The translations under genes were made by a program, and so were the position numbers. A stretch of 64,000 nt of DNA. Origin: Callorhinchus milii. Lineage: Eukaryota. Below the pieces are notes generated by a model, which saw only the letters and a program-made list of their open reading frames with translations, ran no database searches and was not told where the DNA came from. Position 1 is the first letter of the stretch, and each line of letters begins with the position of its first letter. This document shows, one piece after another, positions 9,265-59,132 of this stretch. The DNA lies in assembly GCF_018977255.1 (NCBI RefSeq), contig NW_024704742.1:107634001-107698000 (forward strand). Direction: 5' to 3'.

Positions 9265-9584
9265 TAATAATATAATAATAATCCTTGCATTTGATATAGC
9301 GCTTTTCACGTCTTCTAGATGTCTCAAAGCACTTCACAGAGTATTCTGTAAAGTGAATTGACTGTATATTTGAGGGCAAAATGCAGCAGCCAATTACGCA
9401 CAGCAGTGTCCCACAAACAGTCGTGGATTGAAGTGACCAATTTATTATTCTTTTATTTTCTTGAGGAATTATTATCAGACGTGTGGAGTAAGGAAACTTG
9501 CCCAAGGTTTCACCCTGTCGGGAATCAAACCCAGGTCTCTCGCTTGCAAAGCGAGTACTCTAACCACTGAGCTATAGGACTCCA
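9265..9584 (-). mobile_element. Young tRNA-Ala-derived SINE, full length, short form
   Basis: Reverse complement starts tggagtcctatagctcagtggttagagtactcgctttgcaagcgagagacctgggtttgattcc and ends in the L2-like stem-loop and (tta)n. Confidence 0.92.
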
Positions 9585-28637: not shown

Positions 28638-28951
28638 TGGAGTCCTGTAGCTCAGTGGTTAGAGCACTCGCTTTGCAAGTAAGAGACCTGAGTTCAATTC
28701 CAGGCAGGGCGAAACCTTGGGCAAGTTTCCTTACTCCACACGCCTAATAATAATCCCTCCAAAAAAAAAAAAAAAATTGGTCATTTTCAATCCATGACTG
28801 TTTGTGGGACATTGCTGTGCGCAATTGGCTGTCACGTTCACCCATAAATATACAGTCAATTCACTTTACAGTGTATTCTGTGAAGCGCTTTGGGACGTCT
28901 AGAAGATGTGAAAAGCGCTATATCAAATGCAAGGATTATTATTATTATTAT
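28638..28951 (+). mobile_element. Young tRNA-Ala-derived SINE, full length, short form
   Basis: tggagtcctgtagctcagtggttagagcactcgctttgcaagt (A box, TGC anticodon loop), gagttcaattcc (B box), CORE-like accttgggcaagtttcctta, L2-like tail and (tta)n. Confidence 0.95.
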
Positions 28952-32328: not shown

Positions 32329-32664
32329 ATAATAATAATAATAATAATAATAATAATCCTTGCATTTGATATAGCGCTTTTCATGTCGGGAGGACGTCCC
32401 AAAGCGCTTCACACAATATACCGTAAAGTGAATTGACTGTATATTTGTGGGCGAACGTGGCAGCCAATTGCGCACAGCAATGTCCCACCAACAGTCGTAG
32501 ATTGAAAATGACCAATTTATTATTGTTTTTGGTTTTGGAGGGATTATTATTAGGCTCTGTGTGGAGTAAGGAAACTTGCCCAAGGTTTCGCCCTCTGCCT
32601 GGAATTGAACTCAGGTCTCTCACTTGCAAAGCGAGTGCTCTAACCACTGAGCTACAGGACTCCA
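32329..32664 (-). mobile_element. Young tRNA-Ala-derived SINE, full length, short form
   Basis: Nearly the reverse complement of 52357-52681; long (taa)n tail; CpGs retained. Confidence 0.95.
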
Positions 32665-34712: not shown

Positions 34713-35937
34713 AAAACAGAACAGATGCAAAATGAAGCCTCCTCTTCTCTGTTACTACAATTTGATTCAATCCCTGATCTCCGAGAAGGAAAAAAAGAAC
34801 TGTTGGCCAGCATAAAATTTCACCATCCTGTAGTTTCTCAGAATGTGATTTGTATCTTGAACGTATAATTTCACGGAGCGAATGTTTTTGTCTGAAGTAC
34901 TGAGTCAATGTCTTTTGATGAAAACTTCAAGCTGATTTCCAAGATAAAGTCCACAGTGCATTGAGGAAACGTGTCATGGATTTGATAAGCTGTTCTCTTG
35001 TGGTGCATTGCAAGTTAAACATATGGAAATCACTCGTGCCATCTGCCGTTCTAGGCCATGCTTGTGTGAAGCTGATTTATTTTTAGAAAGCTTTAGAGGG
35101 CACTGTGAATCTATTAAGGGATGGGTGAAATATTTTATGAACATCCAGCCCTAATTTAAATAGGCATGTTTAACAGGTGGCCAGAAACCTCAAACACATT
35201 CACTGCAAGTGAATCCAAAATGATGATAAATATCATAGTACAAATGATAAAAAATGTTTCCAGCAAACTTTAAGGTGAAACTTGCAATGTTTTATAAGAT
35301 AGCAAGTAAGTCCCAGAAACAAAGGAACTCATTATTTTCCAAAGTGATTGTCTTGTTTTCCACAAATACTGAATCGCTTTTTATTAAGACAACCCTAAAT
35401 TTGGTCCATTTCAACACCTTTTAACCCACTGAATAAAATAGGTCCAAATGGGGCAAATGTACATTCCCTTTGAGACATTTGAGTGCTGTTTGTCTGATTC
35501 CTTGATTATTTTGTTTATCTTGCTTTCTCCCCACCTTCAATTTAATTTTCTTGCACTGCACGTTTTCTGGTCAAGAGATGAGCTGTAGACCTCTACCAAG
35601 CTCTACCAATCCATCGTATTAAGTTTATGTGTCAATGTTTTATTTTTCCAAGTGTATAAGTCCCACATGAGCACAGCTGAGATGGGGAATTTAACGTGTA
35701 AGGAATCACAGCCAGCTACACTTCAGAACCAGCTGATTTGTCACTGTAAGTGAATTGAATTCCCTGGCAACATAAAAATGTAAAATGCAAATTCTCGTAT
35801 TTATGATACTGAGCAGTGTTCTACTGGCATCATTTTATCTGTACCCTATAAAGCATAAGTTCTAAATTATTATCTATTGACTGTTGGAATAGTAATGTTA
35901 TACAGTATACTAAATTGTTCCATACAAATGTAACTTA

Positions 35938-36205
35938 TAATAATATAATAATAATCCTTGCATTCAATATAGCACCTTATCATGTCTTTGAGACATCTCA
36001 AAGCGCTTCACAGAATATACTGTCAAGTGAATTGACTGTATGTTTCGTGAGCGAAACGCGGCAGTCAATTGCACACAGCAGTGTCCCACAAGCAGTCATG
36101 GATTGAGTGACCAAATCATTATTTATTTTTTATTATTCTTTTGAAGTATTTGAATTATTACCCCGGAAATGCGATTCGCCAAACGACCAACAACCAGGTT
36201 CCTAA
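35938..36205 (-). mobile_element. Young SINE, long form, 5'-truncated
   Basis: Standard tail plus attattaccccggaaatgcgattcgccaaacgaccaacaaccaggttccta, the long-form segment. Confidence 0.85.
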
Positions 36206-36594
36206 ATTATATATTAAAACCGGGACAAAGAGAAGAAACTTGATCTGTTTTAGGACATTGAAATGAAACAGCTTCACATTTTATAATTTATTAACTACAT
36301 ACAGTGAGTTAATACGTAGTTTTATGGACATTATTCTTCCCCCCATTAACAGACAAGGGTGGAGGAGAGGAGAGACAATTCCACACTGTGTTCAGATTGA
36401 ATTTTAAACCCAGATCCAAATTCCAAAACAGCAGCATCAAGCAGGATCTAAAATATGTTCTTTTTAAAAAACTGAAATGAAGCAAGGCCAAAGGATCATT
36501 TGGTCCATCAAGCCTACTCAAATTTAACATTAGCATAATACTTTGGATTGTTTTGACAGAATATTTCTCAGGCTGCATTATAGATCTGACTCAG

Positions 36595-36870
36595 GTCTCA
36601 GGCTGGCTCAGATAGAAGATGCACTCCCACCTCTGTGTCAGAAGGTTGTACATTCAACCACCGTTGAAACTTTGATCTTACAGCCTGAGCTAATATACTA
36701 CGAAGCTAACTTATTAGTAAAGGAGCGCAGCATCAGAGGTGCTGATGCATCATTCCGATGAGATTTTAAACCTAGGATTTGTCTGCCTATTCAGATAGAT
36801 GTTAAAATTCCCATGACAGAATTCAAAAAGAACAAGGAGTTTCTCCCAGCTTCCTAGCCAACAATCCTGT
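36595..36870 (+). mobile_element. DeuSINE/SacSINE1-like SINE (5' and middle)
   Basis: ggctcagatagaagatgcactcccacctctgtgtcagaaggttgt head; gagtttctcccagcttcctagccaacaatcc body. Confidence 0.75.
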
Positions 36871-36879
36871 GAATAAAAA

Positions 36880-37101
36880 CAGAGAGAGCCGGGAAAACTC
36901 AGCAGGTCAGGCAGCATCTATGGAGAAAGGAAACTCTTCTTTGTCTTCCTTGTCCTGCCTCCCCCTCTCAACGTATCCTTTACAACCTCTCCCTCCCAAC
37001 ATGCCCCAGTTCTGACGAAGGGTCGTGGACCTGAAACGTTGACTCACTTTCCTTTCTCCATAGATGCTGCCTGATCTGCTGAGTTTTCCCAACTCTCTCT
37101 G
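36880..37101 (+). mobile_element. Non-coding fold-back element of Penelope-like type
   Basis: Arms 36881-36933 and 37048-37100 are reverse complements at 50 of 53 positions. They enclose a pyrimidine-rich tract and a hammerhead core. Confidence 0.75.
37008..37044 (+). ncRNA. Minimal type I hammerhead ribozyme motif
   Basis: AGTT-CTGACGA-AGGGTC-GTG-GACCT-GAAAC-GTT-GACT: catalytic boxes CUGANGA (37012-37018) and GAAA (37033-37036), helix II, palindromic ACGT helix III, GUU cleavage triplet, 4-bp helix I. Confidence 0.7.
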
Positions 37102-37119
37102 ACCTTATTCATTACGCTA

Positions 37120-37305
37120 TTATGTGGTACCTTATCCGAACGCCTTTTGGAAATCCAAATATATTAAATCTACCGCATTACCCTTGTCTACTCTTTCTGT
37201 TACCTCTTCAAAGAATTTAATGCGGTTGGTCAAGCATTACCTTCCTTTTTGAAATCCGCATTGACTATTCTTTATTATGTTTTCCATTTCTGGATGTTTT
37301 TCTAT
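37120..37305 (-). mobile_element. CR1 LINE RT fragment
   Basis: Minus strand reads ...SQCGFQKG...CLTN...EFFEEV...VDKGNAVDLIYLDFQKAF.KVPH, the classic CR1 RT motifs. Confidence 0.85.
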
Positions 37306-37379
37306 TACCTCCTTCCACTCATGTTCCCTCCTTTCAGCATTCCAATCGGCAGTTTTGCTGGGAACCTTGCCCTCAACTG

Positions 37380-37687
37380 CCAGAGATACTGTCGAAAAAT
37401 TTAAGATAGCTGTCAAAAGAACCAGAGGGAATATCAGGCAAATTTTTTTCACACAGTGAGTTGTTTGGATATGGAATGCACTGCCTGAAAGGGGGTGGAA
37501 GCAGATGCGGTAACAACTTTCAAGAGAAAAGTGGATAAATATTTGGGGAGGACAAACTTTCTAGGCTATGGGGAAAGCGCGGAGGAGTGGGATTAATTTG
37601 GACAGCTTTTTCAAGAGCTGGCACGGGAACGATGGGCCAAATGGCCTCCTTCTGTGCTGAATAATTCTATGGTTCAATGTTTCTATG
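37380..37687 (+). mobile_element. CR1 LINE 3' end
   Basis: tttttttcacacagtgagttgtt...tggaatgcactgcctga...gatgggccaaatggcctccttctgtgctg...ttctatg tail. Confidence 0.85.
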
Positions 37688-38139
37688 AGTTCCTGTTGGA
37701 CAATTGTGCCTGTAGATTGGCCATCATTGTCTTTATCAGGCCTGCATTTTTCCAACCTCTCCCTGAGTGACAATTTCATGATGTTCAGAACCACTCGTGG
37801 ACAATGGAACATTTCTCCCCTTGGAAAGCTCTGTTTCAAAATTGGAAAGATGTCATCAAGAATAATAATAATAATCTTTGCATTTGATATAGCGCCTTAT
37901 CATGTCGTCGAGACGCCTCAAAACATTTGATAGAATTTACTGTAAAGTGAATTGACTGTAAATAATCAATAATAACATTATTAATTAAAATTATCAAAAC
38001 TGTAAATAATCAACAATAAACTGAATATGCTTATTTGCAGGATAGTGGACCTCAACTTAACAGTGTTCCTTAATACTATGCCTGCAGGGTAAGGAAAATC
38101 CATGTAATATGACAGAATTCCACTGGTAAAGAGCAACCA

Positions 38140-38460
38140 TCCTTTGGATTAGATGTTAAACCAAGGTCCCATCTGTGCCTGTTCAGGTGGCTGTTAAAGA
38201 TCCCATGGCATTATTTGAAAAGAGAAGGAAGTTTCTCTCTCCCAGTGTCCTGGACAACAATCCCACAAATAAAATTGATCACTCACTGCATGGCTGTTTG
38301 TGGGACATTGCTATGCACAACCAACTGCTGCAATTGCTTTTGAATACCCAGGCTATCCACTTTATAGTATCCTTTGAAACATCCTGCTGATGTGATAAGC
38401 CGATATATCAAATGTAAGGATTATTATTATTATTATTATTATCATTATTATTATTATTAT
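38140..38460 (+). mobile_element. DeuSINE/SacSINE1-like SINE with an expanded (tta)n tail
   Basis: gttaaagatcccatggcattatttgaaaagag body; about 40-nt (tta)n at 38421-38460. Confidence 0.85.
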
Positions 38461-41790: not shown

Positions 41791-42344
41791 ACAACAACAC
41801 CTTGCAATTATATAGCGCTCTTCAAGCGGGGTAGCATCCCAGAGCACTTGACAGTGGCGGAGTCTGACACCGAGCTAGGGGGAGATGGCGGGGGGAGATG
41901 ATTGTAAGATCGATCAAAAAGGAAGGTCTTTAGGCGGCATTTGAAAGTGGGGAGGGAGGGGGCAAGGTGGAAGGGTTGAGGGAGAGCAGACTGATAAATG
42001 GAAAGCTGATAAAACTTCCAACAAAACAGTCACTAATTGTGATAGAAATTACTTTGAAGTCCTTTAAAACACTTGAATGCTGTAGGTGCTATAAAAACAA
42101 AAAAATCATTCATTCATTCATTCATTCATTTATTCAAGTAGTGCATTTTGGGAAGAAAATAAAACAAGTGGAATTACACAAGAAAGGCTTCCTTCTGCGC
42201 TGTGCTGAAAATGTCAATATTTCTATGAAAGTCAAGAATAAGCTCACAAAAGTGAAAAGTGAAGGGACACAAATATTAATATACTTTTTCATACTGAATC
42301 TGTTAGTACTCAACACCACAGGGACAAACCAACAATGGAAACCA

Positions 42345-42860
42345 GAACAGCTAGGGTGCAGGGGAGATTTACGAGGATGGTACCAGGAATGAGGGACCTT
42401 GATTATGAGGAAAGGCGAGAGAGGCTGGGATTATTCTCATTGGAGCTGAGAAGGTTACGAGGACACCTAATAGAGGTTTCAAAATCAAGAGGGGATTTGA
42501 TAGGTTAGAAAGGGAAAAACTGTTTCCACTGGTGGGTGTGTCGGTGACTTGAGGTCACAGATTCAAAATAGTTTCTAAAAGAAGCAGAGGGAAGGTGAGA
42601 AGAATTTTTTTCACGCAGCGAGTTGTTCGAATCTGGAACGCATTGCCTGAAAGGTTGGTGGAGGCCGATTCAATAACTACTTTTAAAAACGCGGTGGACG
42701 GGTATTTGAGGAGGACGGGTTTGCAGGGTTATGGGGAAAGGGCTGGGGAGTGGGATTGACATTAATTGCTCTATTCAAAGAGCCATAACAAACTCAATGG
42801 GCCGAATGGCCTCTTTTGGTGCTGTACGATTCTATGATTCTTTGATTCTATGCTTCTATG
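42345..42860 (+). mobile_element. Young CR1 LINE 3' end
   Basis: RFTRMVPGMRDLDYEER.ERLGLFSLE.RRLRG.LIEV ORF2 C-terminus, 3' UTR and (attctatg)n tail. Confidence 0.93.
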
Positions 42861-52356: not shown

Positions 52357-52681
52357 TGGAGTCCTGTAGCTCAGTGGTTAGCGCACTCGCTTTGCAAGTG
52401 AGAGACCTGAGTTCAATTCCAGGCAGGGCGAAACCTTGGGCAAGTTTCCTTACTCCACGCGCCTAATAATAATCCCTCCCAAACCAAAAACAATAATAAA
52501 TTGGTCATTTTTAATCTACGACTGTTTGTGGGACATTGCTGTGCGCAAATGGCTGCCGCGTTCGCCCACAAATATACAGTCAATTCACTTTACAGTGTTT
52601 CTGTGAAGCGCTTTGGGACGTCCTCCCGACGTGAAAAGCGCTATATTAAACGCAAGGATTATTATCTTTATGATTATTATT
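52357..52681 (+). mobile_element. Young tRNA-Ala-derived SINE, full length, short form
   Basis: Intact A and B boxes, retained CpGs, tail agcgctttgggacgtcctcccgacgtgaaaagcgct. Confidence 0.95.
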
Positions 52682-57929: not shown

Positions 57930-58490
57930 TAATAACAACAACAATTGAATTTACATTATGCTTTTCACATCGGGAAGATGTCTCAAGTCGCTGGACACTG
58001 AATGGTTCGCACCCGAGCTGGGGTTGGAGTCAAGGGCCGTGGGAGAGGAGGATGGGGGAGGTGGGAGGGTCGAGGTGAGAGGTTGACTGAAAGCACGGTC
58101 AGAGAGGAAGGTCTTGAGATGGGCCTTGAAGGAGGCAAGAGAGGTGGAGGGTCTCCGGGAAGGAGTTCCAGAGGGTAGGGGCAGGAAGGCTGAAGGCCCA
58201 ACTGCCTTTGGTGGATGAGGATGGCAAGGGATATGGAATAGGCCAGTGCCAAGCAGAGGGAGTGGGCAGGTTGGTAACATTTTAGTCGGTTACAAAAGTA
58301 GGGAAGGGAAAAACCATGGAAGGCTTTAAAAGTGAATACAAGGATACAACTCAATCTTCTGAGGTATGAGGAATCAATGAAGCCGAGCGACGATGGGGAT
58401 GATTGGCTCATGGGGTTTAATGCGGGTGAGGACACAGAATACAGAGTTTTGACAAATCTGCAGCTTGTGGAGGAAAGAGTTGGGGATATA
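57930..58490 (-). mobile_element. L2 3' fragment
   Basis: ILVFTFKAFHG, ASFKAHLKTFL and (caa)n tail. Confidence 0.85.
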
Positions 58491-59132
58491 AAAGTAGATT
58501 TTTTTTCCCCCATTGGGTGCATGGCAATTAACCTACTGTACAGCTCAAGTGTAGACATAGACATTGAGCTCTCTGTTGCTTAATCGTCTTAGCCTTTGGT
58601 GGTGTTTAAAGCAGATAAGGCATTAATACTGTGTGATTAAAGAATGGTTCTTCTTAATAGACACGGCATGCAGCTCATTATTTATGGATGAAATGCATGT
58701 GACTGCGCACATAAAAGGCAGAGAGCACTGTTGTGATCTATTTTGATTAAAGCAGTTAAATATTTTCAGCAAGTAGTAGTGTTGAGTATCTGTGATAAAA
58801 AATCATTGCTGTTAAAATTTGCTCATTTTTGGTCACAATTATGCATAATAGTTCAAACCTGTCATATAAACTTTAGAAGATATTTTTGACAGGACTCGGA
58901 CATGTTATAAGAAAAAGAATTTTTGCAAAGACTTTTCACTAGAGTTATCAGATATTGAATGTCTCCTGTCTTGATTGAATGGACAGAGTTCATGTGCCTA
59001 TGGTATTTATTCAATATTTGGAATTATTTATTCTCAAAAAGATTGTGGATAAGTGGTAACATTAACTGCTTAAAGTAAACAAAATAAATAACGTTATCTA
59101 TATCTAAATGTGTCCCATATGATAGACATTAA

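Follow-up and report, generated by a model that had tools for sequence, protein, structure and literature searches.

The fold-back element at 36880-37101 of the window (the whole 64-kb stretch of DNA analysed here) is most likely a dead-on-arrival, inert insertion of a truncated, endonuclease-bearing Penelope-like retrotransposon (PLE). It carries a minimal hammerhead ribozyme motif (min-HHR) that, judging from its sequence, has most likely drifted and become silent in this copy. The earlier note on this DNA had offered two origins: a severely truncated Penelope insertion or a non-autonomous ribozyme-bearing element of 220 bp. The former is supported by a high-copy repeat family, by the variable 5' ends and arms of its members and by the fit to the published min-HHR consensus. 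The latter, as a fixed 220-bp unit, finds no support because boundaries differ between copies. The family is probably the end of an endonuclease-bearing (EN+) PLE with a min-HHR. This membership is probable rather than proven; the motif, the truncation and the inverted copy all fit. The locus is retroelement debris of a kind that has been described since 2014.

Architecture of the element and its junctions

The inverted arms have the length and match first described for them (36880-36932 and 37049-37101, 50/53), and the total span is 222 bp rather than 220 bp. One more inward base pairs between the arms, so that 51/54 positions are identical when 36880-36933 is compared with 37048-37101. The predicted fold of the fold-back RNA has an energy of -119.7 kcal/mol (z = -14.3), which none of 200 shuffled sequences equals. 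Translations of the body at 36934..37007 give no coding signal, and blastn finds no second copy of the element in the 64-kb window (Table 1).

Table 1. Features of the fold-back element and its flanks, in window coordinates
Feature	Position	Strand	Basis or remark
Old SINE-like repeat, left flank	36748..36878	+	Aligns to 36878 with five other window copies, not beyond
Left arm, inverted 5'-truncated copy of the family 3' end	36870..36933	-	51/54 identity; loose ends before 36891
Body rich in pyrimidines, 5' of the hammerhead, presumably pLTR / 3' UTR	36934..37007	+	Contigs of other copies
Minimal type I hammerhead motif	37008..37044	+	Descriptor match; consensus of PMC4209133 Fig. S3; cleavage predicted
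Right arm, 3' end of the direct copy	37045..37101	+	Shares its final five bases, 37097-37101, with the CR1 flank
Right flank, broken LINE reverse-transcriptase fragment, CR1-like	37097..37330	-	Translation ...YLDFQKAF / DKVPH...MNKVR; many contig pieces start at 37097

The left arm ends before reaching the hammerhead and extends deeper into the terminal sequence of the family than the right arm does. It agrees with the family end out to about 36870, which makes it about 10 nt longer at this end than the right arm, a difference that does not define a full tail.

Both flanks are repeats that break off at the element. On the left, the last 7 bases (36872-36878) of a repeat that we take to be a SINE overlap the family end. 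On the right, a LINE fragment, presumably of the CR1 type, reads on the minus strand as far as 37097 and has 5 bases in common with the arm. An extra 7-bp complementarity at 37105-37111 falls within the CR1 reading frame and belongs to the LINE, because the LINE fragment extends up to 37097. There is no target-site duplication (TSD): no direct match exists between the outer flanks, and the best candidate (7/8) lies inside the arm. Two unrelated repeats are cut at the two junctions, and target DNA was therefore presumably lost at or after insertion. A division of the left SINE by inversion of 36115-36878 was considered and rejected, because 35937-36204 is an independent, younger SINE copy. The missing SINE half was also looked for after the LINE end at 37688 and was not seen there.

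Two LINE fragments lie back to back, a reverse-transcriptase piece at 37097-37330 (-) and a 3' end at 37399-37688 (+), and possibly represent one inverted, truncated insertion. Two opposed SINE copies form, through their tails, a 65-nt inverted pair (78%) at 37858-37922 and 38373-38437, in which ATT/AAT microsatellites occur. Four near-identical tRNA-like sequences score above the Rfam tRNA threshold (9510-9581 (-), 28641-28712 (+), 32595-32657 (-) and 52360-52431 (+)) and are most likely the heads of one tRNA-derived SINE family, not tRNA genes.

The hammerhead motif

Both catalytic boxes are exact, as had been claimed: CTGACGA occupies 37012-37018 and GAAA 37033-37036, within GAAAC at 37033-37037. 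The earlier account of helix I (AGTT with GACT, here placed at 37008-37011 and 37041-37044, 4 pairs) and of helix III, reduced to the palindrome ACGT (37036-37039) before a predicted cut after U37040, is also confirmed. The version of helix II with an A-U pair and a bulged G is better replaced. A helix of 5 pairs between 37020-37024 and 37028-37032, with A37019 unpaired and G37020 paired to U37032, is predicted to be more stable (-6.3 versus -2.0 kcal/mol). The published min-HHR consensus likewise includes an extra unpaired nucleotide before helix II (PMC4209133). The complete PLE min-HHR core, which consists of CUGANGA with an extra nucleotide, GAAAN and NUH, is present at 37012-37019 and 37033-37040.

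Helices I and II contain one G.U pair each, in both cases adjoining the core, and that of helix I is the wobble U37011.G37041 beside the cut. The description of the ribozyme as apparently intact therefore holds for its two core boxes and fails for the core-flanking pairs, both of which are G.U and one of which departs from most family copies.

A minimal-hammerhead descriptor has 1 match on both strands of the window and 0 in 500 dinucleotide shuffles. Rfam reports no hammerhead at the gathering score or at E values up to 10 (other families give 4 and 6 matches), which is unsurprising because the motif lacks a helix III stem. The 64-kb window holds no second hammerhead, and on its minus strand the element lacks a core box.

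A dimer duplex of ACGU at 37036-37039 has a predicted energy of -1.7 kcal/mol. Read over six bases (37035-37040), the sequence is still palindromic, so that A14 and U17 could also pair in a dimer, at -3.5 rather than -1.7 kcal/mol. Another copy type has a further six-base palindrome that spans the cut site (37038-37043).

The 37-nt motif alone is predicted to form helix I (p 0.5-0.8) and helix II (p 0.96), and both are predicted not to form (p below 0.001) when the motif is folded with its own upstream body. Bases 36968-36974 are predicted to pair with the cut site over 7 bp (p 0.8-0.99), but this was rejected as a specific block, because 91% of 1,000 shuffled spacers also abolish helix I.

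The repeat family in sequencing runs

Contigs of four public sequencing runs were aligned to 36650-37350 at 80% likeness. Run X1 comes from the species of the locus and possibly supplied the assembly itself. Two other organisms are represented by X10 and X11, and X14 is, by our guess, RNA. Matching contigs number 9,189 in X1, 22,562 in X10, 21,011 in X11 and 3,257 in X14. Summed depth in X1 is 8.3 in the unique left flank, 2-4 × 10⁵ in the arms and 1.5 × 10⁵ in the hammerhead; summed depth is no copy number, and the safe reading is that the family has thousands of copies. The first X1 record spans 36650-36906 without differences, so the left junction is present in read contigs. X14 contains the family and leaves the unique flanks uncovered, which is no evidence either way on this locus. 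No empty site was seen, and X10 and X11 have no cover of the unique flanks.

In the contigs of these runs, boundaries vary between copies. Among the 15 joints listed (of 281), arms end at 36918, 36926 or 36933; body starts include 37007-37011 (6 rows), 37017-37018 (2), 37034 (1) and 37042 (1), and 5 of these listed joints change strand. Loose ends behind 36933 mark copies whose inverted arm continues through the hammerhead. The upstream body is common to other copies, because several contig pieces in X1, X11 and X14 cover 36935-37096. The family is anchored at its 3' end; the extent of 5' truncation and the inverted partner differ from copy to copy.

Depth increases toward the 3' end. In X1 it is 3.5-5.7 × 10³ in the body upstream of 36985 and 1.5-4.1 × 10⁵ at 37010-37057. 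The rise is 7.6-10.3 fold from 36983 to 36997, about 3 fold from 37002 to 37024 and 1.2-1.7 fold in each later step. Among the 24 loose-end rows listed (of 1,551), those before 37008-37009 count 133 in X1, 281 and 212 in X10, 207 and 126 in X11 and 43 in X14. They lead into unrelated AT-rich flanks, with an agreement of 0.34-0.37, compared with 0.59-0.65 behind 37091, where the family continues. None of the listed rows is a loose end at the cut site, the nearest entry being the single joint at 37042, and no place where many molecules begin is listed. Local alignments may stop where conservation stops.

After the right arm, most copies continue beyond 37091 as a pyrimidine run ending in CAG, which resembles a 3' splice acceptor. 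The window copy has diverged or stops before this run. PLEs often have an intron in the pLTR or 5' UTR (PMC4209133).

Pattern scans for the family found 0 loci in viral_contigs, 0 and then 6 in metagenome_contigs and 2 in genome_contigs. These 8 loci were dropped as family copies, since only 22-26 bases match, as expected by chance. The literature search found no description of the family from cartilaginous fish; Repbase and Dfam lay outside its scope and may well contain it.

State of the window copy

The G.U pair of helix II departs from most of the family. T37032 is C in 72-85% of family depth across the four runs, and a C would restore the usual G10.1-C11.1 pair if 37020 stays G; position 37020 is absent from the 40 variant rows listed (139 others). 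CpG deamination is a likely cause of T37032, because the base precedes G. No core position appears among the same 40 rows, for which reads were selected at 80% likeness. Loose-end summaries, which are column-wise and not per molecule, hint at G-C/A-U and C-G/U-A exchanges in helix II and at another copy type with an A-U pair at 10.1-11.1 and an A opposite U37011.

Published PLE hammerheads, counted by eye in Fig. S3 of PMC4209133, have G.U at 10.1-11.1 in 8/56 rows and U at position 17 in 24/56. These features do not prove decay, because they are common there. In the same rows, no wobble (0/56) adjoins the cut. Such a wobble would be expected to lower cleavage, an effect on which the literature search found no paper. 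The exact core boxes of this copy count against decay.

The arms differ from each other at 3/53 sites and share a base at 36896/37085 that is unlike 48-69% of family depth. This pattern fits arms that would have been copied from one template and then aged modestly.

A model for the insertion

The parent would be an element encoding a reverse transcriptase (RT) with a GIY-YIG endonuclease in its open reading frame (ORF). About 170 nt of its 3' end, comprising the pLTR end and the minimal hammerhead, would have been reverse-transcribed into the site, and a shorter copy of the same 3' end, about 55-64 nt long, would have been placed inverted at the 5' side to yield the fold-back. Both arms could derive from one template in one event, either because both nicked strands primed synthesis or by self-priming. 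Priming from both strands would leave two 3' ends facing outward, which is the arrangement seen. Loss of target DNA would have occurred during or after the same insertion. The hammerhead, which lies about 60 nt from the 3' end and for that reason would be carried along, is probably a passenger whose function lay in the parent RNA, exerted by a dimer or aided by protein.

Insertions of PLEs are described as strongly 5'-truncated, often with an adjacent inverted, 5'-truncated copy at the 5' end and a one-sided tail (PMC8557442, PMC3846280). TSDs are usual but not universal, some copies have inverted pLTRs and no TSD or have microhomology at their junctions, and self-priming has been proposed for the head-to-head form (PMC3846280). 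With purified anole PLE protein, both strands of the DNA are nicked and then extended, in each case from the same internal sites of the RNA; the protein favours AT-rich DNA and works with RNA that is uncut (PMC11167929). Opposite-strand pairs of min-HHRs, as well as lone min-HHRs, have been described as probable truncated PLEs (PMC4209133).

Comparison with known elements

The window motif resembles the PLE min-HHRs of Cervera and De la Pena 2014 (PMC4209133) in its CUGANGA box with an extra nucleotide, its GAAA box, a helix II that opens with G, a two-base palindromic helix III and a short helix I. Thousands of lone copies per genome and opposite-strand pairs are described there as well. The window copy differs from the 56 min-HHR rows of Fig. 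S3 in the U.G wobble adjacent to its cut. It also differs from the elements of that paper in that the inverted arm stops before the ribozyme and no ORF adjoins. Neither RT nor GIY-YIG sequence was found next to the element, and 0/163 frames scanned with Pfam across the window contain a GIY-YIG domain. Cartilaginous fish are not represented among the 56 rows.

Among EN+ PLE units, the Penelope/Poseidon, Neptune and Nematis elements (PMC8557442, PMC3846280, PMC11167929) share with the window locus 5' truncation, an adjacent inverted copy, end sequence that is longer on one side, an AT-rich junction and the occasional absence of a TSD together with microhomology. The EN+ PLE tail is 30-40 bp, optional and present on one side only, to be compared with the modest excess of the left arm over the right. 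Unlike these units, the window element has no ORF sequence, so its clade is not assignable, and it lies between two cut repeats that are unrelated to each other.

Animal non-LTR retrozymes (bioRxiv 10.64898/2026.07.22.740005) are likewise short, non-coding and PLE-derived and carry a type I hammerhead; both hammerhead retrozymes and PLEs are reported in the one chondrichthyan sampled there. Retrozymes are head-to-tail tandem units, each with a hammerhead, whereas the window locus consists of one unit and an inverted partial arm, and tandem hammerhead units are absent from the window. Compared with the canonical type I hammerhead of Rfam, the motif has no match to a curated model. The element is neither a tandem retrozyme nor a miniature inverted-repeat transposable element (MITE).

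Host sequence near the element

The earlier note had raised the possibility that the ribozyme cuts a host pre-mRNA or lncRNA. No host exon was recognised in the window, and no transcript of the locus was found. Of 155 frames of at least 58 aa outside repeats, 150 were scanned together with 13 more, and they yield only sub-threshold Pfam hits. A crude exon scan returned 29 unconvincing candidates, none of them at stricter cut-offs; shorter exons could be missed by such a scan. One exon-like frame, 58338-58577 (+), was set aside: it is in its first part or largely an antisense LINE repeat with several window copies, and searches with it returned nothing, or two repetitive proteins without a plausible link. 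A sub-threshold Ezh2_MCSS Pfam hit at 41934-42389 (+) (E 3.3e-5) is probably spurious, because a repeat tail and, after it, a TTCA microsatellite seem to make up the DNA there.

Published metazoan min-HHRs do not cut as monomers. A single Schistosoma mansoni min-HHR shows no cleavage and dimers cleave weakly (PMC4209133), and 1/9 of the Xenopus dimers tested is active (bioRxiv 10.64898/2026.07.22.740005). In the anole, cleavage by the PLE hammerhead required PLE protein, and the experiments reported in PMC11167929 detected no RNA ends at its cut site.

Alternative explanations

The least improbable alternative is a dedicated non-autonomous PLE derivative, in which PLE protein copies in trans a transcript that is either headed by the hammerhead and short (about 100-130 nt) or spans the whole fold-back, this locus being a longer member. 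In each of the four runs, the loose ends before 37008-37009 rank with the best supported, 6 of the 15 listed joints (of 281) enter the body at 37007-37011, depth rises about 3 fold from 37002 to 37024, and non-autonomous PLE derivatives are known from the literature. The clustering of starts at 37008-37009 also seems tighter than random truncation predicts, which counts against plain truncation. However, arm ends and body starts vary, this and other copies reach 74 nt further upstream, and the largest step in depth (8-10 fold) lies at 36983-36997, not at the edge of the hammerhead. The clustering is drawn from 24 of 1,551 loose-end rows and 15 of 281 joints, and alignment ends may track conservation. 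We regard such a derivative as improbable. It is doubtful, though somewhat less far-fetched, that the short copies favour starts on the 5' strand of helix I (37007-37011) over the cut site (37041) and so mark a real hammerhead-headed template RNA. If the clustering is real, the template would be uncut RNA that starts at the ribozyme edge, either because transcription begins there or because a splice junction falls there. In Penelope of Drosophila virilis, the intron has its end at the 5' side of helix I. In the window copy, the CAG at 37007-37009 (AG at 37008-37009) is a weak splice acceptor, at the 81st percentile of window AGs.

The other readings of the locus are more distant. The direct copy might have inserted alone and acquired its inverted arm later, through template switching or repair, in the event that also took away parts of the SINE and the LINE. 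The lack of a TSD and the cut repeats with 5-7 bp overlaps on both flanks would agree with this, but the same arm-to-body joints recur in many other copies in three organisms. Moreover, the left arm was not copied from the present right arm alone, because it holds family end sequence that the right arm lacks, and a later origin is very improbable. Still harder to credit is co-option as an active ribozyme that cuts a host pre-mRNA or lncRNA beside a long double-stranded stem. The exact core boxes and the helices that the isolated motif is predicted to form speak for it. Against it stand the lack of a recognised host exon and of a partner hammerhead in 64 kb, the inactivity of published metazoan min-HHR monomers and weakness of dimers, the protein needed by the anole ribozyme, the wobble at the cut-site pair, and the predicted loss of the helices next to the native upstream sequence (a loss shared with 91% of shuffled spacers). 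Cutting of host RNA is unlikely, although a partner hammerhead may come from another transcribed copy of the family. Finally, a MITE or fold-back DNA transposon with terminal inverted repeats would account for a small, non-coding, high-copy element with inverted ends. This is the least credible reading and is largely excluded by variable arm lengths and inner junctions in place of fixed terminal repeats, a gradient of 5' truncation, the missing TSD and a PLE-type hammerhead. A truncated EN+ PLE insertion remains the preferred explanation.

Implications

The role of PLE hammerheads is still called unclear (PMC8557442). As the debris of such an element, this family has thousands of short, truncated and inverted copies that could show statistically where the template RNA begins, and could also reveal whether cut RNA is copied and how the inverted arm forms. 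If a hammerhead-headed RNA of about 100-130 nt did serve as template, it would amount to a non-autonomous PLE unit of which a vertebrate carries thousands of amplified copies, and these would serve as a natural map of the starts of PLE template RNA and of the purpose of the ribozyme. Fold-backs of this kind, if transcribed inside introns, would supply 50-bp RNA stems.
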